Shown in pieces: positions 9,366 through 22,902 of a DNA stretch of 64,000 nt. Source of the stretch: Candidatus Latescibacterota bacterium (GTDB taxonomy: Bacteria; Latescibacterota; UBA2968; GCA-2709665); NCBI GenBank assembly GCA_963667175.2, contig CAXXXF010000017.1:1-64000 (forward strand), written 5' to 3'. How positions within the stretch are numbered: position 1 is the stretch's first letter; every line of letters begins with the position of its first letter. The position numbers were made by a program, and so were the translations under genes. The notes beneath the pieces were generated by a model. That model ran no database searches and had not been told where the DNA came from. It was given only the letters and a program-made list of their open reading frames with translations.

Positions 9366-11786
9366 ATGGCATTTCTCGATCGAATTCGCAGGCGGAAAAC
9401 CAATCCGTACCAGGAAATCGAAGAATACCGGGATCTGCTTGAAGTCCCCAAGGAATTCGAAGAGGGATTCAACTCCAAGACCATTCTCGGTGCGCTCTTC
9501 GTTTCCGTCATTATGGTTCCGGGCAATATCTACCTGGAACTCATGGTGGGACATTCCGTCGGCGCCGCGGCCCAGTGGGTGACCATCATTCTGTTCCTGG
9601 AACTGGCCAAGCGCTCGTTCACGGTGCTTAAGAAGCAGGAACTTTACCTGCTCTACTACGTCACCAGCGCCCTGGTTGCCCGCGAAACCGGAATGTTCGA
9701 AGGCCTGCTCTGGCAGCAGTACTACGTGCAGTCTCCGGCCGCCAAGCAGTTCGGCATCTCCCATCTCATCCCCCGCTGGTGGGCGCCCCCGCCCGATTCT
9801 CCGGCGCTGATCGATCGGACCTTCCTGCATCAGGACTGGCTCCTGCCCATCTCCCTGCTCGTTTTGGGAATGATCATGGGTCGCATCCAGTGGTTCACCG
9901 CGAGTTACGTGCTCTTCCGCATCACCTCCGACTACGAACGCCTGCCCTTTCCCTTCGCGCCCATCAACGCCCAGGGCGCCATGGCGCTTGCGGAAGAAAG
10001 CAGCGGTCAGTACAGCTGGCGCTGGCGGGTTTTCAGCATTGGCGCGGTCATCGGGGTTGTGTTCGGGTCGGTCTACGTGGCCGTACCCGCCATTTCCGGC
10101 GCGTTCATGGAACAGCCGCTTCAACTCATCCCCATCCCGTGGGTGGATTTCACCCAGTACACGGGATACTTCCTGCCGGCCACGCCGCTGGGCTTTACGC
10201 TGCACCTGGCGCCCATCTTCGCCGGTCTTCTGGCGCCGTTCTGGGCGGTCATGGGCGCATTCATCGGTGTCGCCATCCACACCGCGGCGGGTCCCATCCT
10301 GTATTCCTACGGGTACATGCCCAACTGGTATATGGGCATGGATACCATCATGACCCACTTCGTCACGGGCATCGATTTCTGGATGAGCTTCGGGATCGGC
10401 ATCACCTTCGCCATCGCAATTATCGGATTCTACCAGGTCTGGACCGGGGTTCGTACCGCCCGGGTGGAGAAAAAAGAAACGGGGAGCTGGACGCCGCCGC
10501 GCGGTCGCGGAGACTTCCGGATCTGGATCTGCGTCGTACTCTTCTGTCTTGCGAGCCTATATACCATAATCCTCGCCAAGGTCCTCTTCCCTGACCTCGT
10601 GAGCACGGTGCTGCTCATCTTCTTTTTCGTCTTCGCGTTCGTCTATACGCCGTTGATCTCCTTCGTCAACGCGCGGCTGGACGGGCTGGTCGGACAGAAC
10701 GTCAATATCCCCTATATCAGGGAAGCCACGATCTTTCTGAGCGGGTTCAGGGGTATCGAAATCTGGTTTGTGCCCTTCCCCCTGGCCAACTGGGGCGCAC
10801 AGGCTGAAACATTCCGTCAGATTGAACTCACAGGCTCGAAATTCACCGGGATCCTGAAGGCTGAGATCTTCATGATCCCGCTGATCCTCCTGACCAGTTT
10901 CATGTACTGGTCCTATATCTGGAAGCTGGCGCCAATTCCCTCGGCCTCCTACCCCTACGTCCAGATGATGTGGCCGCTGCGGGCGCTCCAGAGCAGCGTC
11001 TGGTACACCGGCACCATGCAGGGCGAGGTGGAGCACGACCCGTCCTCCGGAACGGTATCCTTCCAGCCGAGCAATCTGCCCGACGGCAACTGGTGGTACT
11101 GGCGCGCCCGCGCGTCGGCCGACGCGCACATTGAAGATCATGAACAACGCGCTTACGGACCGTGGTCCCGCGTTGGGTATTTTTATACGAACTTCAAGAG
11201 TACCGAAAAGCCGCTCGTGCCGCCGCTTCCGGTGGACCGATCGGCGCCGGACATTTCCGAAGCGTTGCGGCTGGGCCTGCCTTCGGCGCCGGCGTTGCGG
11301 AGCCCCGATGACGGAAGCCACGCGAACAACCCCAACCCCAACCTGGTCGTGCTCGCCGCGCGGGACCAGGAGGGACGGGAGCTTGTATACCAGTTCGAAG
11401 TGGACCAGGTTCCCTCCTTCGACGGTTCCTTTCTGCAGAGTTCGGACGACGAGCCGATCCTGTTCGAAGCCATCAAGCCGGTCGTGATCGCCATAGGACT
11501 CGGCGTCGGCCTGGTCTCGTTCGTGGTTCTGTCCGTCCTGGGCCTGCCGGTCCTGCTCATCTTCGGATACATACGGAGTCTGACCAGCATTCCCCACGTG
11601 ATGATCACCGAGATCATCGGCGCGCTCCTCGCGCGGTACTATTTCTGGAAGCGCTTCGGCAGACAGCAATGGCGACTCTATGCCGCCGTGTTGTACGTCG
11701 GGTTTTCGGTGGGAATGTCGCTGGTGGGCATGGCCTCCGTGTCTATTGCCATGATCCAGAAGGCCGTCTCGGTACTGTTGTTCTGA
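9366..11786 (+). CDS. OPT-superfamily-like peptide transporter with an inserted extracytoplasmic Fn3/Ig-like segment
   Basis: 806-aa polytopic protein; YERLPFP motif similar to that of the DUF6785-like proteins; soluble insert with WYWRARA, YGPWS and PSAPALRSP. Confidence 0.7.
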   Translation: MAFLDRIRRRKTNPYQEIEEYRDLLEVPKEFEEGFNSKTILGALFVSVIMVPGNIYLELMVGHSVGAAAQWVTIILFLELAKRSFTVLKKQELYLLYYVTSALVARETGMFEGLLWQQYYVQSPAAKQFGISHLIPRWWAPPPDSPALIDRTFLHQDWLLPISLLVLGMIMGRIQWFTASYVLFRITSDYERLPFPFAPINAQGAMALAEESSGQYSWRWRVFSIGAVIGVVFGSVYVAVPAISGAFMEQPLQLIPIPWVDFTQYTGYFLPATPLGFTLHLAPIFAGLLAPFWAVMGAFIGVAIHTAAGPILYSYGYMPNWYMGMDTIMTHFVTGIDFWMSFGIGITFAIAIIGFYQVWTGVRTARVEKKETGSWTPPRGRGDFRIWICVVLFCLASLYTIILAKVLFPDLVSTVLLIFFFVFAFVYTPLISFVNARLDGLVGQNVNIPYIREATIFLSGFRGIEIWFVPFPLANWGAQAETFRQIELTGSKFTGILKAEIFMIPLILLTSFMYWSYIWKLAPIPSASYPYVQMMWPLRALQSSVWYTGTMQGEVEHDPSSGTVSFQPSNLPDGNWWYWRARASADAHIEDHEQRAYGPWSRVGYFYTNFKSTEKPLVPPLPVDRSAPDISEALRLGLPSAPALRSPDDGSHANNPNPNLVVLAARDQEGRELVYQFEVDQVPSFDGSFLQSSDDEPILFEAIKPVVIAIGLGVGLVSFVVLSVLGLPVLLIFGYIRSLTSIPHVMITEIIGALLARYYFWKRFGRQQWRLYAAVLYVGFSVGMSLVGMASVSIAMIQKAVSVLLF

Positions 11787-11891
11787 GCGCCGTCCGGCGA
11801 TGGCCCTTGACGTTGGCTGGACAGGTATCCCGTTTGACGGATTGATTCGATCGATCCGGGCCGTGTGGTCTAACGACACCTGGATGGAAGC

Positions 11892-12458
11892 ATGTCAGCA
11901 GCGATCGGCATGATCGAAGTCGAAGGCGTCGCCGGGATTATTCTGGCGTCGGACGCGGCCTGCAAAGCCGCTGGCGTGGATCTTCTGGGTTGGGAGTCCA
12001 TCGGTGGATTCACCACCGTTTTCTTCGGCGGATCCATCAGCCGCGTGGCAACGGCGCTCAGGAGCGGGGAACAGGCGGCCAAAGAGGTGGCGGACCACGT
12101 CGTGGCGGCGCCAATGACGCACCCCGAACCCGTTTGCCGGGAGTACGTCTCGAATGCGGTCGCATCCCGGCGGCGGACACCGTCCGGAGCGCTGGGTATG
12201 ATCGAAACGAGAGGATATGGCGCCCACGTCACCGCCAACGACAAAATGATGAAGGCGGCCGACGTCCAGGTCTACAACGTGCTCACCGTACACAACCGGG
12301 TGGTCTGCTCCCTGATACTTGGCGACGTGGCTTCCGTGACCGAAGCCCTGCCCGTGGGCCGCGCGAGCGTCGAGGCCGGCGAGAACTTCCTGGGCGCTGC
12401 CCTCATCACCAGACCCCTGCCCGACGTCCTGCGGGCATTCGGCCCCGGAGCGCCGTGA
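11892..12458 (+). CDS. Bacterial microcompartment shell protein with 2 tandem BMC domains
   Basis: AIGMIEVEG..ASDAACKAAGV and ALGMIETRG..NDKMMKAADV; both are canonical Pfam00936-like repeats. Confidence 0.92.
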   Translation: MSAAIGMIEVEGVAGIILASDAACKAAGVDLLGWESIGGFTTVFFGGSISRVATALRSGEQAAKEVADHVVAAPMTHPEPVCREYVSNAVASRRRTPSGALGMIETRGYGAHVTANDKMMKAADVQVYNVLTVHNRVVCSLILGDVASVTEALPVGRASVEAGENFLGAALITRPLPDVLRAFGPGAP

Positions 12459-13618
12459 CATCCCCGCGAAATCACGCCCTGGGCATTCTGGAAACCCGCG
12501 GCATGACCGCGCTTGTCGCGGCCGTGGACGCCATGCTGAAGACCGTGGACGTTCGGGTTCTGGGCAGTCACGGCGTGGGATCGGGCTGGTTGACGGTTGT
12601 AATCGAGGGCGTCGTATCGGACGTTGAGGCCGCCATTCGAGTCGGACGATCCGAAGCCGTGAACCACGGCGACCTGATCACCGCCGACGTCATCGCGGGA
12701 CCGGTCCCGGGCGCCCTCAAGTCCATGCCGCACAGGACGGACGCGGTCACGACAGGCCCGTTCGGCGCCGGGGCGATGGGCATCCTTGAAACGCGGGGCA
12801 TGGTCCCCCTCATCCGTGGCGCCGACGCGATGGTCAAAAGCGCGCGCGTTCGCGTCGCCGGTTGGACGTCCGTTGGCGGCGCGCTGGTTCATCTCGTGGT
12901 CCGGGGTGAACTTTCATCGGTCCAGACTGCCCTGCAGGCCGGCAAAGCGTGTGCCGATGAGGTCGGGGAAGTGTACGCGGCCCTTATGATTCCGAGGCCG
13001 GAGGCAGGCGTCGAACCGCTGCTTCCGGGACCACCGGTTTCAAACGGGCCCCGGGCAGACGCGGGCGCGCTCGGTGTGCTTGAAACAACGGGTTACGCCA
13101 GCGCGGTCGGCGGTTCCGACGCCATGGTCAAAGCCGCCGATATCGACCTCGTGCGCCTCGTCATCGCCAGCGGAGGCCGGGTGGACGCACTGGTGAAAGG
13201 CCGGCTGGACGCAGTCCAGGCGGCCGTCGACGCCGGTGTCGACGGCGCCCTGGAGGCCGGAGAGTTGAATGCATCCTGTGTCGTTTCCCGACCGTCTTCC
13301 GAAGTCATGGCCTGTTTCGGCCGAAGCGAGGCCGTAAGAGCCACGAGCGGGAATCAGGCCATGGGTCTCATCGAGACACGCAGCACCGTGGCCCTGGTCA
13401 AAGCCGTGGATCAGATGTTGAAGTCCGCGGACGTGGAATTCGAGGGTCGATACAAGGTCGGGTACTTTCTCACGGCAAGCGTTGTCCGGGGAGACGTCGG
13501 CGCGGTGGGCGCCGCCCTGCAAGTCGGGGCCGAGGAAGCGGAAAGGTACGGTGAACTCGTATCGGCCCATCTCATTCCGCACCCCTTTCCCGCACTGGAA
13601 GAGCGGCTGATCCACTGA
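12455..13618 (+). CDS. Bacterial microcompartment shell protein with 4 tandem BMC domains (387 aa)
   Basis: GTG start overlapping the upstream TGA (GTGA) with a GGAG RBS. Four repeats: ALGILETRG..DAMLK, AMGILETRG..DAMVK, ALGVLETTG..DAMVK, AMGLIETRS..DQMLK. Confidence 0.92.
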   Translation: MTSPRNHALGILETRGMTALVAAVDAMLKTVDVRVLGSHGVGSGWLTVVIEGVVSDVEAAIRVGRSEAVNHGDLITADVIAGPVPGALKSMPHRTDAVTTGPFGAGAMGILETRGMVPLIRGADAMVKSARVRVAGWTSVGGALVHLVVRGELSSVQTALQAGKACADEVGEVYAALMIPRPEAGVEPLLPGPPVSNGPRADAGALGVLETTGYASAVGGSDAMVKAADIDLVRLVIASGGRVDALVKGRLDAVQAAVDAGVDGALEAGELNASCVVSRPSSEVMACFGRSEAVRATSGNQAMGLIETRSTVALVKAVDQMLKSADVEFEGRYKVGYFLTASVVRGDVGAVGAALQVGAEEAERYGELVSAHLIPHPFPALEERLIH

Positions 13619-13657
13619 TCCGCCGCCGAATGCCATTTCCGTCTACCGGGGAAATCC

Positions 13658-14827
13658 ATGATACGCATCGACGATCCGGTGGTTACAGAACAGCTCCTCA
13701 AGGATAAACTGGGACAGGGGCGAGAGGTTGAAATCTGCCCGCGGGCGAAGCTCACTCCGCTGGCGCTGGACTATCTTGCGGCCAACGGGGTACAGGTATC
13801 CAGAAAAGAGTCGGATACCGGCAGTCCAAGGACCTCAGCGCCGACCCACCGCCGAATCCCCGGCGCCCGGAGAGAATTCAAGGGTATCTTCTGCCCCAAT
13901 ATCGTTATCTTCGACGGCAACAACCGCATCAACTTCGGTGAGATGGAGCGCTACGTCAACTGGCTCATCGACGCCGGCATCCACGGGTTGTATCCCAATG
14001 GCAGCACCGGCGAATTCGTGCGCCTTTCCAGCGACGAACGCAAGGAAGTCGTGCGGCTTGTCACAAACGTCAACCAGGGCCGCGTGCCCGTTCTCGCGGG
14101 CGCCAGCGAAGCCAACCTGCGCGACGTGCTCCGAATGAGCGAATACTACGCGGGCATTGACGTCGACGCCATTTCGCTGGTCCCCCCCTACTATTACGAG
14201 ATCTCGGAAACCAGCCTCTTCGAATACTTCGCGGAAATCGCCAGGCAGACGCCTCTGGACGTCCTCCTCTATAATATTCCGCAATTCACACAGGAACTCA
14301 CGCTGGACATCATGGAACGCCTGCTTCCGTTCGAACGCATCATGGGAACCAAAGACTCCAGCCGGGACATGCCGAGGCTGATCAACACCATGCATCGGTT
14401 ACGCGAACAGCGTCCGGAGTACGTGGTCCTGGTCGGCTGCGAAGAAATCCTCTGCCCTTCCATAATGATGGGCGCCAGCGGCGGCACGATCGCAACGTCC
14501 GGTATCATACCGGAAGTCATCGTTGACGTCTACGAAAAGACCCTGGCCGGAGATATCGGAAACGCGAGAGAAATGCAATACCGCATCCTGGACCTCATCA
14601 ACCTCATGCTCCTGGGTGTGAATTTCCCGGAGGGCTTCAAAACGGGTGTCGCCGTTCGTGGATTCGACGTGGGTCCGTCCCGCCAGACGATGAGCGCCGA
14701 GGAAAAGGATTACCTGCTCAAGCTGGAAGCACAGATCAGCTGTATCCTGAAAGATATGGGATACGACGTCAATGGCGCCCGAGCCTGTCCCGTAACCAAC
14801 CTCCCGTCAATCGTCGACCGGACGTGA
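13658..14827 (+). CDS. Dihydrodipicolinate synthase/NAL-family class I aldolase with an extra N-terminal domain
   Basis: GSTGEF, LLYNIP (catalytic Tyr) and GTKDSS (Schiff-base Lys); about 70 extra N-terminal residues containing KLTPLALDYL. Confidence 0.88.
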   Translation: MIRIDDPVVTEQLLKDKLGQGREVEICPRAKLTPLALDYLAANGVQVSRKESDTGSPRTSAPTHRRIPGARREFKGIFCPNIVIFDGNNRINFGEMERYVNWLIDAGIHGLYPNGSTGEFVRLSSDERKEVVRLVTNVNQGRVPVLAGASEANLRDVLRMSEYYAGIDVDAISLVPPYYYEISETSLFEYFAEIARQTPLDVLLYNIPQFTQELTLDIMERLLPFERIMGTKDSSRDMPRLINTMHRLREQRPEYVVLVGCEEILCPSIMMGASGGTIATSGIIPEVIVDVYEKTLAGDIGNAREMQYRILDLINLMLLGVNFPEGFKTGVAVRGFDVGPSRQTMSAEEKDYLLKLEAQISCILKDMGYDVNGARACPVTNLPSIVDRT

Positions 14828-14902
14828 TACGGCTCGACGTTCCTTCGGGCGATATCCGAATCCGTTCCTGATCCCGATTCCCATCCCTACAGGAGAGTTC
14901 CC

Positions 14903-15847
14903 ATGGCCGACAACGCGCCGCGGCAAAACCTCGTGGATCCCTTCAGCCTGAGCGGCGGCGACGGATACGTCTGGCTGAAAGGCAACCTCCACTCCCACAC
15001 CACGAACTCCGACGGCAAAGCGTCGCCCCAGGAAAGGCTCGATGGTTACGTCAACCAGGGGTACGACTTTCTGTGTCTTTCGGACCACCGAAGAATCACC
15101 CGGATCGACTCCCTGGACTGTCCGGACGACTTCGCGCTCATTCAAGGCGCCGAACTGCACCCCGACAACCCGTTCGGCGGGCAGAAACACCATTTTCTCT
15201 GTCTGAACGTTCACGAAGACCTCGACTCGGAAGCCATGCCGCCCCAGCACGTGATCGACGCCGTCCGGGACCAGGGCGGCAGCACGTGGCTGGCCCACCC
15301 CTACTGGAGTTCCGTGAACATTCTCAGGGACGTCCTGCCGCTTGAGGGATTTGCCGGCGTGGAAGTCTTCAACACAACGTGCCGATGCGCGGGACGGGGC
15401 GAGTCCGGCGTTCACTGGGACGACTGGATGGACCTGGACAACAGGCTGTATCCCGCCCTGGCCAACGACGACTCCCACGCACTCGAATCGGATCACCGCG
15501 ACACGTACGGGGGCTGGACGATGGCGCGTGTGAAGGAGCGGTCACCCGGGGCCATTCTCGACGCGCTGGAACGGGGGGCGAGCTATTCGAGCACCGGCGT
15601 CGAGATCCGAAACGTCACCCTGCGCAGCAGCGAAGACGGGAAACGGTCGATGGAAGCCACGGTCGAATGCTCCGAATCCCGTTGTATCCTGGCCATTTGC
15701 GATACATTCGGAACGGAGTACAGGAATTCGGAAGAACCCTTTACAAGCGCCACGTTCACCCTGAGTCCGGGCGCGCGGTGGGTCCGTTTCGAAGTCATCG
15801 GAGCGGACGGGACGAAGGCCTGGTCCAATCCCTTCGACCTCACCTGA
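14903..15847 (+). CDS. PHP-domain metallohydrolase (CehA/McbA-like)
   Basis: KGNLHSHTTNSDG, LSDH, AHP, EVFN and NDDSH motifs. Confidence 0.85.
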   Translation: MADNAPRQNLVDPFSLSGGDGYVWLKGNLHSHTTNSDGKASPQERLDGYVNQGYDFLCLSDHRRITRIDSLDCPDDFALIQGAELHPDNPFGGQKHHFLCLNVHEDLDSEAMPPQHVIDAVRDQGGSTWLAHPYWSSVNILRDVLPLEGFAGVEVFNTTCRCAGRGESGVHWDDWMDLDNRLYPALANDDSHALESDHRDTYGGWTMARVKERSPGAILDALERGASYSSTGVEIRNVTLRSSEDGKRSMEATVECSESRCILAICDTFGTEYRNSEEPFTSATFTLSPGARWVRFEVIGADGTKAWSNPFDLT

Positions 15848-18603: not shown

Positions 18604-19716
18604 TCACGCCACCCGGTACTTCTCCACGGTCTCGGCGTTGATCGTCACGCCAAGGCCGGGGCCTTCCGGGACCGTCACGTACCCGTCGACGACGCCGAAC
18701 CGTTCGTGCGTCAGATCATGACGCAGCGGTGATTCCGACATACAGTACTCGAACATCTCACCGCCAGGTACGGCTGCGAGCGCATGAAGCGACGCGGCGA
18801 TCGTAATTCCGCTCTTGAAACTGTGGTTCGCCACCCTGGCATGCCGGCGGTGCGCCATCCTGCCCACCTCCACCATCGTTGAAATGCCGCACCTTCCCGG
18901 ATCGGGCTGCACCCAATCGAGTCCACCGTCGGATACCAGCCGCTCGAAGGCGTCGAGCCGCGCTTCCGCCTCCCCCGCGGCGATCGGCAGGGGGCTATCC
19001 GCCGTCAGGCGGGCGTAACCCCGCACGTCGCCGGGGCGCAGCGGTTCCTCGAGCCAGAACGGGCTGAATTCCGCAAACCGGCGCGCTCGCTTCAGGGCCG
19101 TCTTCCAGTCCCAGGCCTGACCGGCGTCGATCAGCACGTCCACGCCGTCTCCCACGCCGCGCCGCGCCTCCCTCACCAGGGAGACGTCCGTGTCCTCGTC
19201 CCGTCCCACCGGCCCCCAGCCGAATTTGACGGCCGTAAAGCCCTCCCCCGCGAACCTCTTCCCCAGTTCTGCCGTCCGGGCCGGCGTATCGCCGAACAGA
19301 ATCGAACAGTACGCCCGGAACCGTGTGTTGAAAGGCCCTCCGAGCAGCCGGTAGACGGGCGTGTCACGCGCCTTGCCCGCGATATCCCACAATGCGAGAT
19401 TGACGCCCGCCATCGCGTGTACTCCCACGCCTCCGCCGCCGTAGTAGTTCGCCGCGTCCATCATACGGTGCATGCACACGTCCACCGCCAGCGGGTCCTC
19501 ATTGCGAAGGGCGTTGGCCAGTCCGTTGCAGATCCGGTGCGACAGGGGCGCGTCCACAATTGCCTTGACGGCCGTCGGGCAGGAATCCACCTCTCCCCAA
19601 CCCGTGATTCCGGCGTCGGTCTCGACCTTGATCAGACACGTATCCTGCGTTCCGTCGCAGGCATCGGTAACAAATGGCAGCCGCAATACCATAGCGGATA
19701 CGCGGGTAATTCTCAT
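18604..19716 (-). CDS. Mandelate racemase/muconate lactonizing enzyme family (enolase superfamily)
   Basis: GITGWGE, ALWDIAGK..PVYRLLGG, LIDAG, WLEEP, AAGE. Confidence 0.9.
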   Translation of the reverse strand: MRITRVSAMVLRLPFVTDACDGTQDTCLIKVETDAGITGWGEVDSCPTAVKAIVDAPLSHRICNGLANALRNEDPLAVDVCMHRMMDAANYYGGGGVGVHAMAGVNLALWDIAGKARDTPVYRLLGGPFNTRFRAYCSILFGDTPARTAELGKRFAGEGFTAVKFGWGPVGRDEDTDVSLVREARRGVGDGVDVLIDAGQAWDWKTALKRARRFAEFSPFWLEEPLRPGDVRGYARLTADSPLPIAAGEAEARLDAFERLVSDGGLDWVQPDPGRCGISTMVEVGRMAHRRHARVANHSFKSGITIAASLHALAAVPGGEMFEYCMSESPLRHDLTHERFGVVDGYVTVPEGPGLGVTINAETVEKYRVA

Positions 19717-19939
19717 CTCAATCCTCCGATCATCCAGAACCATCTGCGCAGCGGCGTCAGAACCCGGGGCAATCGAACGGGCGCATCGCGCCCGGTTTCG
19801 CATGATACCCACCCGCGCGGGGTCTGTCAATCCTCACGCGCGGGATCGACGGCCGGCATCAGAAACGGGTTGCACAGCCGCGCCGATCACCGTAGATTAT
19901 CCGCGACCCGCACGGCTGCCTTGAACCGGGGATCCCGCT

Positions 19940-20876: not shown

Positions 20877-21746
20877 ATGGCAAAACGAAGAGTTGTCGTC
20901 ACCGGCGCGGCCGGATACGTCGCGGGTCGGAGCCTGCCCGCCCTCAGGGAACGCTATCGCCTCTGCCTTTTCGACGTCCGCAAAACGGACGGAAACGGCA
21001 ATGAGGTGGCGGGTATCGTTCAGGCCGACCTCCTCAACCGCAACCGGGATGATTATGGAGAGCATTTCAGGGACACGGACGCGGTGATTCATTGCGGCTT
21101 TACGCGTGCGACGGATCCAATGGATCAATACTGGGCGGAAGCCGACAACGTCACCATGGCCCATAACGTGTACCAGACCTGCCTGGAAGAGAACGTCCGC
21201 CGCGTGGTCGTCATCAGTTCCAACCATGCGGCCGACTTCTACGAGACCCTCATCTGGTCCGGCCGCATGGAATTCGTCACGCCGGACATGCTTCCGCTTT
21301 CCGACAACTTCTACGGGTGGGCAAAAGCCACGTACGAACTGCTGGGCTTCGCCTTTGCCGCGGGAAAGATCGGAAACGGACGGAAACTTCAGAATGTGCA
21401 GCTTCGCATCGGCGGGCCCCGCGAGAACGTGGCGGACAGACTCAGTCCGGAAAACCCGAAGGGCATGCACCGCAGCCTCGGGGCCTACCTGAGCGCGCGG
21501 GACCAGACCCAGCTTCTGATCAAGAGCATCGAGACGGAGAACATCGAAGACGAGAACGGCATCCCGTTTCAGATCTTCTACGGCATCAGTGGAAACAGCC
21601 ACAACTTCTGGAGTATCGCCAACGCCCGGAAGGTCATCGGCTACGAACCCGAAGACAACAGCCAGATCCGGTTCGCGGACAAAATCGCACCCGTTATCGC
21701 CGCCGCGAACCGGAGGGCCAACCAGGATGGAGAATCCGGTCGTTGA
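20877..21746 (+). CDS. NAD-dependent epimerase/dehydratase (uronate dehydrogenase-like SDR)
   Basis: VVVTGAAGYVA, SSNHA, YGWAK, YGISGN. The ORF-track extension upstream is MITE sequence. Confidence 0.85.
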   Translation: MAKRRVVVTGAAGYVAGRSLPALRERYRLCLFDVRKTDGNGNEVAGIVQADLLNRNRDDYGEHFRDTDAVIHCGFTRATDPMDQYWAEADNVTMAHNVYQTCLEENVRRVVVISSNHAADFYETLIWSGRMEFVTPDMLPLSDNFYGWAKATYELLGFAFAAGKIGNGRKLQNVQLRIGGPRENVADRLSPENPKGMHRSLGAYLSARDQTQLLIKSIETENIEDENGIPFQIFYGISGNSHNFWSIANARKVIGYEPEDNSQIRFADKIAPVIAAANRRANQDGESGR

Positions 21747-21777
21747 ACCGTCCGGTCAAGAATTGAGGCCAGTCCCG

Positions 21778-22902
21778 ATGAAGATCACGCGCCTTGAGAC
21801 CATCCCCGTCGCACAGCGATTCCTCGTGCTGAAAATGCACACCGACGAGGGCGTCGTCGGCTACGGTGAACCGCTGGACTATACGCACTGGCGAATCGTC
21901 GCGCGCGCGATGGACGACCTGTCCGAATACCTCATAGGGAAAGACCCCCTCCAGATCGAAGACCACTGGCAGACCTTTTTCCGCTCCACGTACAGCCGCA
22001 GCATGCCCATCATCCTGGGCGCGCTCAGCGGCGCGGACGTCGCCATGTGGGACATCATGGGCAAAGTCCTTGACGTACCCGTCTGGCGGCTCCTGGGCGG
22101 GTCGGTCCGGGACCGGGTGCGCGTCTACGCACACGCAGGCGGCAATACGCCGGAAGCCTGCGCGGAACATGCCCGTGCGCGGGTCGCGGACGGGTTTACC
22201 GCCATAAAGATGGGCGGCGCCGTCCGGCCCGTTCGCTTTGTGGATACGGTGCGAGCGGTCGACGAAATGGTCGCCCGCGTCGCTGCCGTCCGCGAGGCCG
22301 TGGGCGACGACGTCGACGTCGCGGTCGATCTGCACCGCCGCCTCAGCCCGCAGATGGCCGTAATCACCGTCAAAGCGCTCGAACCCTACCATCTTCTGTT
22401 TGCGGAGGAGCCCTGCCACCCCGAAAACAACGACGCCCTGCTGACCCTCTCCCGCTCGACCTCCACACCCATCGCAACCGGCGAACGACACCTTACGCGC
22501 TGGAGTTTCTGGGAACTCGTGGAAAAGCAGGCCTGCGCCGTTCTGCAACCGGACGTCCGGCACGTGGGAGGCATCTCGGAGATGAAGAAAATCGCCACCC
22601 TGGCCGAAATCCGGGACATTGCCCTGGCGCCGCACAATGCCGCCGGTCCCATCGGCGTGGTCGCGTCCATCCATACCATGGCCACGGTCCCGAATTTCCT
22701 GATCTGCGAGGGCGGTACCGCTCGTGGCGACGGGCTTCTGCTGCCGCCGCTCTCCTTCAGGGACGGCTTTGTCGAACTGCCCGCGGGGCCCGGCCTCGGA
22801 TTCGAAATTGACGACGAGGCCCTCGAGGCCATGCGGGACGAGCGCTTTCGCTTCCGCGGCATGTGGCGCTCGGAAGAAGACGGGTCATTCGCGGACTATT
22901 GA
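21778..22902 (+). CDS. Galactonate dehydratase-like enolase superfamily protein
   Basis: MKITRLET, GVVGYGE, WDIMGK..PVWRLLGG, DLHRR, EEP, ATGER, APHN. Confidence 0.88.
   Translation: MKITRLETIPVAQRFLVLKMHTDEGVVGYGEPLDYTHWRIVARAMDDLSEYLIGKDPLQIEDHWQTFFRSTYSRSMPIILGALSGADVAMWDIMGKVLDVPVWRLLGGSVRDRVRVYAHAGGNTPEACAEHARARVADGFTAIKMGGAVRPVRFVDTVRAVDEMVARVAAVREAVGDDVDVAVDLHRRLSPQMAVITVKALEPYHLLFAEEPCHPENNDALLTLSRSTSTPIATGERHLTRWSFWELVEKQACAVLQPDVRHVGGISEMKKIATLAEIRDIALAPHNAAGPIGVVASIHTMATVPNFLICEGGTARGDGLLLPPLSFRDGFVELPAGPGLGFEIDDEALEAMRDERFRFRGMWRSEEDGSFADY

Follow-up and report, generated by a model that had tools for sequence, protein, structure and literature searches.

Two-domain shell proteins of the BMC-T class form homotrimers, in which three chains supply the six bacterial microcompartment (BMC) domains of one tile. 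In the BMC-T(s) proteins, which include PduT, CcmO and HO BMC-T1, two non-permuted domains of the family PF00936 are fused in each chain, and the resulting hexagonal tile has three-fold symmetry and differentiated pore positions. CcmK3 and CcmK4 are single-domain paralogues that are encoded by adjacent genes and mix with variable stoichiometry. As presented in the available portion of the work on these proteins, the CcmK3-CcmK4 hetero-hexamers of β-carboxysomes are a natural tile to which more than one gene contributes (PMC6788708). A synthetic tandem BMC-H fusion from a designed Haliangium ochraceum shell (6ner) joins two identical domains and assembles as a homotrimer. The available text of a 2021 catalogue recognizes six shell protein types, all of them symmetric tiles with at most two BMC domains per protein (PMC8217296). 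Our literature search, from whose coverage subscription journals were mostly absent, found nothing on hetero-dimeric tiles or on BMC proteins that naturally have three, four or six domains; on pseudohexameric or heterohexameric tiles it returned only the known CcmK and BMC-T work.

Here, we describe a pair of adjoining shell protein genes, designated A and B, in a stretch of 64,000 nucleotides from Candidatus Latescibacterota bacterium (positions 1 to 64,000 of contig CAXXXF010000017.1, assembly GCA_963667175.2), referred to below as the window. Gene A encodes two BMC domains (A1 and A2) and gene B encodes four (B1 to B4). We find that the two genes are strictly paired throughout the phylum and that their six domains have been kept distinct from one another. 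We consider it fairly probable that one A and one B chain form a heterodimer that serves as an asymmetric pseudo-hexameric tile. The pair resembles BMC-T(s) proteins in its fusion of non-permuted domains, and A has the same number of domains as they do. It differs from them in having a four-domain chain, an obligate two-domain partner and six different positions, and B, unlike BMC-T(s) proteins, is not a two-domain unit of which three copies could complete a ring. In contrast to CcmK3 and CcmK4, the number and order of the domains in an A-B tile would be fixed by covalent linkage (2+4). If this reading is true, the conserved 2+4 pair would add a seventh type of shell protein, a hetero-dimeric tile without internal symmetry, which would offer a pore of six different loops and a face able to bind exactly one partner. 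The synthetic fusions of shell engineers aim at the same asymmetry.

Six distinct BMC domains in a conserved gene pair

The products of A and B matched PF00936 in two stretches (E 1.1e-31, 109 bits) and in four stretches (E 5.6e-76, 250.9 bits), respectively, the gathering cut-off being 24.5 bits. A six-frame PF00936 scan of the whole genome recovered the same six domains, each above the curated cut-off. The six matches are far beyond chance, and they bear out the count of two and four domains given in an earlier note, which had been made from the letters of the DNA. The domains are not circularly permuted: the best stretches are colinear with PF00936 (B2 matches positions 1-75 and A1 positions 1-71), and in the genome scan five of the six cover positions 1-75 and A1 covers 1-72. 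The order of secondary structure elements in models of both proteins is that of the canonical BMC fold. With exactly two non-permuted PF00936 domains per chain, A agrees with the definition of BMC-T(s); B, with four, does not, and as a unit the pair falls outside this class. Fifty-three PDB sequences match B at E 1e-10 or lower, the longest chain having 213 residues, and no solved structure with more than two BMC domains is found among them. The best of these sequence matches is the synthetic fusion 6ner (E 3.4e-37), and the best natural one is PduT (3vcd), which matches B3-B4 (E 1.7e-16). Genes of these families are currently annotated only as 'BMC domain-containing protein', 'CcmO' or 'CcmL/EutN'.

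The lysine of the edge motif D-x-x-x-K serves tile-to-tile contacts in BMC shell proteins. The translations contain the motif in all six domains (DAACK, DKMMK, DAMLK, DAMVK, DAMVK, DQMLK), together with six differing pore loops (SIGG, VHNR, VGSG, VGGA, ASGG, VGYF), both as the earlier note had read them. Across 30 orthologues the edge lysines are invariant (K25 and K121 of A; K29, K128, K226 and K323 of B; 30/30 each), and the pore loops are conserved according to position: SIGG-F in A1, TVHNRV in A2, GVGSGW in B1, SIGGAL in B2, IASGGR in B3 and KVGYF in B4. The same set shows two further invariant residues, the arginines R136 in A2 and R242 in B3.

The 30 A and 30 B orthologues were cut into 180 domains, from which a tree was built. 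Each of the six positions forms a clade of its own, with support of 1.0 for A1, 0.998 for A2, 0.925 for B1, 0.92 for B2, 0.984 for B3 and 0.996 for B4. Across genomes, domains of the same position share 65-75% identity on average, as opposed to 24-42% for different positions within a genome. Because of these six positional clades and the higher identity within each position, we conclude that the six domains have been kept distinct together. The tree contains no alternating pattern of first and second domains, as a triplicated BMC-T gene would give.

The family is a common one. Relatives of B fall into at least 231 non-redundant protein clusters at 90% identity. The 120 homologues of B listed are 366-424 amino acids (aa) long and 54-94% identical to B, and a hidden Markov model (HMM) built from the six domains of the window finds four BMC domains in every one of them (120/120). 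Of 168 genomes of the phylum, 83 contain B (E 1e-40 or lower) and 84 contain A (E 1e-25 or lower). The two lists of genomes are identical except for one member (G095) that has A only; this assembly is 85% complete and split into about 980 contigs, and its match to A ends at query residue 160. In all rows compared, A and B have abutting coordinates, the widest gap being about 190 nucleotides (nt; G097). A closer comparison of loci comprised 30 genomes of the phylum, that of the window included, and 11 named genome records. A two-domain gene lies directly upstream of the four-domain gene in all of them (30/30 and 11/11), which answers in the affirmative the question raised in the earlier note, whether the smaller gene always adjoins the larger one elsewhere. 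Only one genome of the window's genus (G049) has neither gene. Because the C-terminal part of the aldolase gene that normally follows B is retained at the very start of one of its contigs, the pair of this genome probably fell into an assembly gap.

Of the 168 genomes, 146 have BMC-P (PF03319). Among the 83 that carry B the figure is 82; the single B genome without a match is 78% complete. In one genus (g11) BMC-P is present in 21 of 21 genomes and the A-B pair in none, and the pair is thus an optional addition to a shell able to exist without it. That genomes such as these thrive on BMC-P without A-B would also be expected if the pair were not a facet tile at all, its BMC domains having been reused in an internal scaffold, a cap or a former of filaments or nanotubes, or if B were a decaying fusion. 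We regard this as quite improbable. The six invariant edge lysines and the high positional identity over 30 genomes argue for selection on tiling edges, and B shows no stops or frameshifts outside contig ends in the genomes of the phylum. Moreover, in family f4 the pair lies inside the main BMC locus, near genes for BMC-T, BMC-H, PduL and aldehyde dehydrogenase.

The boundary between A and B

In the window the two genes share the four nucleotides GTGA, such that the GTG start of B (12455-12457) overlaps the TGA stop of A (12456-12458). The coordinates, frames and overlap are as the earlier note had described them. For the comparison of junctions, the start of B was assigned as the start codon nearest the first domain. 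Among the 30 phylum loci, the start of B is never more than 13 nt from the last base of the stop codon of A and ranges over this distance on either side, with an overlap in 11 loci and a spacer of 3-12 nt in 19. These junctions comprise eleven distinct offsets and three frame relations; in six of the 30 loci A and B are in the same frame with an intervening stop. An A stop and a B start are present in all 30.

The window's overlap and the different frames of its two genes could also have been produced by an assembly indel that broke a single six-domain gene, an alternative that the earlier note had put forward. It is refuted by several observations, and we assign it almost no weight. All 30 loci have the A stop and the B start, in three frame relations and with six in-frame stops. 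Contigs of four other sequencing runs, aligned to positions 11892-13618 at 85% or higher likeness, span position 12455 (contigs 5 and 6 of run X1, 19 of X3, 10 of X18 and 15 of X19) with zero indels in the aligned region; contig 15 of X19 (1497 nt) has 81 differences and 0 gaps. The best sequencing run contains 0.38 of the sampled words of positions 11700-13900, and none reaches half. No fused six-domain form occurs among the 120 listed near-length matches to B, none of which exceeds 424 aa, and a search restricted to longer proteins (679-2000 aa) gave no match, which is weak evidence. The sole long match in a search of sequence representatives, P0160 (569 aa), has two domains. Because the junctions vary among genomes and independent contigs cross the boundary without an indel, we conclude that the split between A and B is old and real rather than an artefact of assembly.

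The same contigs bear on the overlap itself. Position 12447 is G in the window and T in the contigs of all four other runs (G12447T). The T creates a TGA three codons earlier in A and yields a 185-aa form that is found in close relatives. The GTGA overlap is therefore a recent feature local to this genome; the tight junction is general. The earlier note had taken GTGA as a sign of translational coupling. The overlap is real; as a sign of coupling, GTGA is limited to this genome and a few others, and it is the tight junction that fits equal, coupled expression of A and B. When positions 11500-15200 were scanned for promoters and terminators, nothing resembling a terminator separated A, B and the aldolase gene from one another, and the scan gave no other informative site. 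Contigs from RNA libraries (X18, X19) cover both genes, an observation that by itself shows neither transcription nor a single transcript.

Proposed assembly of A and B into a shell tile

AlphaFold2 models of A and B, built from our own 30-row alignments, had a predicted local distance difference test score (pLDDT) of 90.5 and a predicted template modeling score (pTM) of 0.88 for A, and of 87.8 and 0.87 for B. A pTM this high for a four-domain chain indicates that the model is sure of the relative placement of the domains. In the B model, each domain's last strand is separated from the following domain's first strand by a similar distance (23-25 residues), and the chain ends of A and B are short, so that the break between A and B sits where another linker would be. 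When the models were compared with the PDB using Foldseek, 6ner was the top match for both. The B model superimposed on it with a TM score, normalized by target, of 0.88-0.91 and a root-mean-square deviation (rmsd) of 2.0-3.0 Å over 179-186 columns; for A the values were 0.85-0.88 and 2.7-5.0 Å. Consecutive domains are thus modeled as ring neighbors of a hexagonal tile. From this we infer that the four neighboring domains of B would form an arc of 240 degrees, with space for two further domains.

A 1:1 complex of A and B, the assembly proposed in the earlier note, was predicted with ESMFold2 from the same kind of 30-row alignments and alongside three controls. The interaction score (ipSAE, computed from predicted aligned errors) was 0.66, 0.46 and 0.54 (median 0.54), and that of the best control was 0.00; the result was graded as weak support. 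The runs share at least 86% of their contacts, and the partner chain A has a pLDDT of at least 85. In a benchmark, 58 of 80 solved complexes passed the mark, as did 2 of 110 mismatched pairs; of those that passed, only 7 of the 80 solved complexes but both mismatches lay at an ipSAE of 0.60 or under. These counts are only approximate when own alignments are used. We count the prediction as a small addition to the comparative evidence. The earlier proposal of a 1:1 complex has in this way gained weak support, and as an assembly it is still one that we infer.

We propose that one A chain (A1-A2) and one B chain (B1-B4) would close a ring of six BMC domains, giving a pseudo-hexamer without rotational symmetry. 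Such a tile would share the facets with ordinary hexamers of BMC-H, and the shell would be capped by pentamers of BMC-P, whose genes are on another contig. Each of its six edges would retain the lysine for tile contacts, and its pore would be lined by six different loops, each conserved according to position. A ring order of A1-A2-B1-B2-B3-B4, if it follows the order of domains in the chains, would set R136 of A2 opposite R242 of B3 across the pore. We favor this 1:1 tile because of the strict pairing and co-occurrence of the genes, their tight junction, the six positional clades, the conserved motifs, the geometry of the domains, the models, the complex prediction and the presence of BMC-P.

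The pair might instead supply two tiles, with A forming BMC-T-like homotrimers and B assembling separately. Three B chains, for example, would bring twelve domains, a multiple of six, and could form two covalently linked hexagons (4+2 and 2+4); alternatively, trimers of B1B2 and B3B4 could lie side by side or be stacked. The number of BMC domains in A, exactly two, is that of BMC-T proteins, which the accessible text of the 2021 catalogue describes as trimers (Sutter et al. 2021, PMC8217296). Even so, we judge separate assembly to be unlikely. With the exception of the contig-end case of G095, orthologues of A were never found without B in 168 genomes. The positions of B differ strongly from one another (24-42% identity), yet B1B2 and B3B4 would need to interchange in the ring. 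No inter-domain stretch in B stands out by its length, and a bridge between tiles might call for a longer one. The tight and often overlapping junction suggests a fixed 1:1 dosage and not a 3:3 ratio of unrelated tiles. Finally, the weak support from the 1:1 prediction, at a median of 0.54 with the best control at 0.00, also speaks against separate assembly.

Several points weigh against the 1:1 tile. A alone has the domain count of a BMC-T protein. The 240-degree arc of B would follow from the pTM and pairwise superposition only, and the models deviate from natural BMC-T chains (PduT, HO BMC-T1) by an rmsd of 15-17 Å with a TM score of about 0.4. The ipSAE of the A-B complex lies in the weak band, and its pass may come from likeness to BMC hexamers and trimers, which are well represented among solved structures. 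We found no natural six-domain fusion and no re-partitioned form of the same six orthologous domains, such as 3+3. Lastly, the link between tile and aldolase is one of neighborhood only, and 7 of the 83 A-B genomes have no match to the aldolase at E 1e-80. With regard to the deviation from natural BMC-T chains, we note that the modeled chain may circle the ring in the opposite sense, or that the difference may be an effect of modeling or alignment.

Chains with more than two BMC domains were also found outside this family. An exhaustive search with B against 1.84 billion representatives gave 5003 hits, and the domains of the best 150 were counted with our own HMM: one protein had four domains, 20 had three domain hits, 67 had two and a single domain was counted in 62. 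The 20 include six fragmentary members of the B family, which share 49-54% identity with B. The remaining fourteen are full-length, at 283-330 aa, and have three domains each (14/14 by our HMM), and a Pfam check found three PF00936 stretches in 7 of 7. These triple-domain proteins (P0132-P0137, P0139, P0140, P0142, P0146, P0161, P0173, P0174 and P0177) come from sources that include metagenome-assembled genomes of Elusimicrobiota and Dehalococcoidia. Like B they carry more than two PF00936 domains per chain, and a 3+3 dimer would also give six; they differ in having three domains without positional orthology to A1 through B4 and in not being found in this phylum (a query with P0139 matched 0 of 168 genomes). 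In a metagenome scan with P0139, all 9 loci recovered encoded generic BMC proteins (40-69% identity in the best segment), which gave no context for the three-domain genes. When their 42 domains were compared with HMMs of the six positions, B2 was the best match for 23, B1 for 9 and B3 or B4 for the rest; half of the margins were under 5.5 bits, and the best matches were mostly generic. The idea that these proteins represent a re-partitioning of the same ring (A2-B1-B2 with B3-B4-A1), which would prove ring closure, was rejected, as no consistent order of domains was found.

Two of the triple-domain proteins, P0139 and P0135, are 39% identical and colinear across all three domains, and they share contig statistics (5 contigs each, the longest of 520,993 bases, and one member each on a contig of 5,151 bases). 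They may constitute a 3+3 gene pair. The existence of such proteins suggests a wider and undescribed theme of chains that exceed two BMC domains. We put forward tentatively, and as a reading that could well prove wrong, that higher-order tandem BMC proteins are an unrecognized class of shell building block, in which A and B would form a fully asymmetric tile and the triple-domain proteins of other lineages would do the same as 3+3 dimers. In this tentative reading the A-B tile would have six different edges, a bespoke pore and a unique face that docks one N-terminally extended aldolase or passes a sugar-acid substrate. If that is true, the loss of symmetry would allow each tile of a shell to be given a single cargo or a single pore, which so far has been achieved only by engineered fusions.

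The aldolase gene and the microcompartment loci

The coordinates of the features discussed here are collected in Table 1. The gene after B encodes a class I aldolase-type enzyme of the dihydrodipicolinate synthase/N-acetylneuraminate lyase (DHDPS/NAL) family. In 27 of 30 loci the gene directly after B belongs to the DHDPS family, and such a gene occurs in 76 of the 83 A-B genomes. The window's enzyme reaches no NCBIfam equivalog cut-off.

Table 1. Features of the A-B locus and of the main microcompartment locus (positions refer to the window unless a contig is named)
Feature	Position	Strand	Details
806-aa open reading frame	9366-11786	+	no Pfam or NCBIfam match
Gene A, shell protein, two non-permuted BMC domains	11892..12458	+	ATG start, 188 aa; open reading frame/translation, PF00936
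Domain A1	~11901-12107	+	six-frame PF00936 scan of genome
Domain A2	~12189-12416	+	six-frame PF00936 scan of genome
A/B junction	12447..12458	+	GGAG 12447-12450, 4-nt spacer, then GTGA 12455-12458
Gene B, shell protein, four non-permuted BMC domains	12455..13618	+	GTG start, 387 aa; PF00936
Domain B1	12476-12703	+	six-frame PF00936 scan of genome
Domain B2	12773-13000	+	six-frame PF00936 scan of genome
Domain B3	13067-13294	+	six-frame PF00936 scan of genome
Domain B4	13358-13585	+	six-frame PF00936 scan of genome
DHDPS/NAL-family class I aldolase-type enzyme	13658..14827	+	PF00701 E 1e-55, residues 74-361
314-aa CehA/McbA family metallohydrolase-domain protein	14903-15847	+	88.7 bits vs cut-off 80; directly after aldolase
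Enolase-superfamily (mandelate racemase/muconate lactonizing enzyme, MR/MLE), sugar-acid dehydratase type	18604-19830	-	type unassigned
Enolase-superfamily (MR/MLE)	21589-22902	+	galactonate dehydratase NCBIfam 395.5 bits vs cut-off 311
Locus L042, main microcompartment locus	G000 contig C2:188000-207000		Pfam content

In the aldolase, the DHDPS domain is preceded by an N-terminal extension and a linker (encoded at 13658-13888), which consist of a strongly conserved segment of about 50 aa followed by a variable stretch rich in Ala, Pro and Ser. Encapsulation signals are usually laid out in this way, with a conserved N-terminal segment tethered by a flexible linker, and by this analogy the extension is a candidate encapsulation domain. 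It was seen only in orthologues that adjoin A-B. The homologues of families f13 and f14, from genomes without A-B, are 48-49% identical and lack it, since they match only from residue 57-72 onward. The extension gave no Pfam match up to E 5, and its best PDB sequence match was at E 1.9; in the Atlas, 'PDU_like' clusters (PF15953) appeared at 0.77-0.78, below the 0.9 mark, and offer a lead at most. The A-B tile might serve the enzyme as a docking site or as a pore for its substrate or product. The two MR/MLE enzymes of the window point to sugar-acid catabolism around the shell genes. Because these sugar-acid dehydratases are nearby, our best guess is that the aldolase would cleave a 2-keto-3-deoxy sugar acid to pyruvate and an aldehyde, and that the aldehyde would then pass to the dehydrogenase of the organelle.

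Upstream of A, 10 of the 11 named loci have an open frame of about 809-831 codons, L002 being the exception. An open reading frame of the 806-aa type is not adjacent to the pair in family f4.

The other shell genes of the window's genome, two with a single PF00936 domain and three of BMC-P (PF03319), are all on contig C2, for which reason the window is a satellite locus of the microcompartment. The genome thus has both BMC-H (C2:202061-202288 and C2:195353-195580) and BMC-P, which would allow a closed shell to form. Along with these five shell genes, the main locus on C2 (L042) encodes a class II aldolase (PF00596), an aldehyde dehydrogenase (PF00171), a PduL-type phosphotransacylase (PTAC; PF06130) and an acetate kinase. 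In the accessible part of the catalogue, the PVM (Planctomycetes and Verrucomicrobia) and PVM-like type comprises a class II aldolase, an aldehyde dehydrogenase, a PTAC and a BMC-P triplet (PMC8217296). The content of L042 resembles a metabolosome of this type, the name being used for likeness only. The single-domain BMC open reading frames of L042 are 121 and 155 aa long, and the locus also contains a Reg_prop protein and two proteins without a family (476 and 368 aa).

The order of genes within the main BMC locus of family f4 (L043) is aldehyde dehydrogenase, PduL, a 186-aa BMC-T, an 87-aa BMC-H, an unknown gene of 149 aa, A and B, followed by a DHDPS-family enzyme, a flavin adenine dinucleotide (FAD) oxidoreductase and a second DHDPS-like gene.

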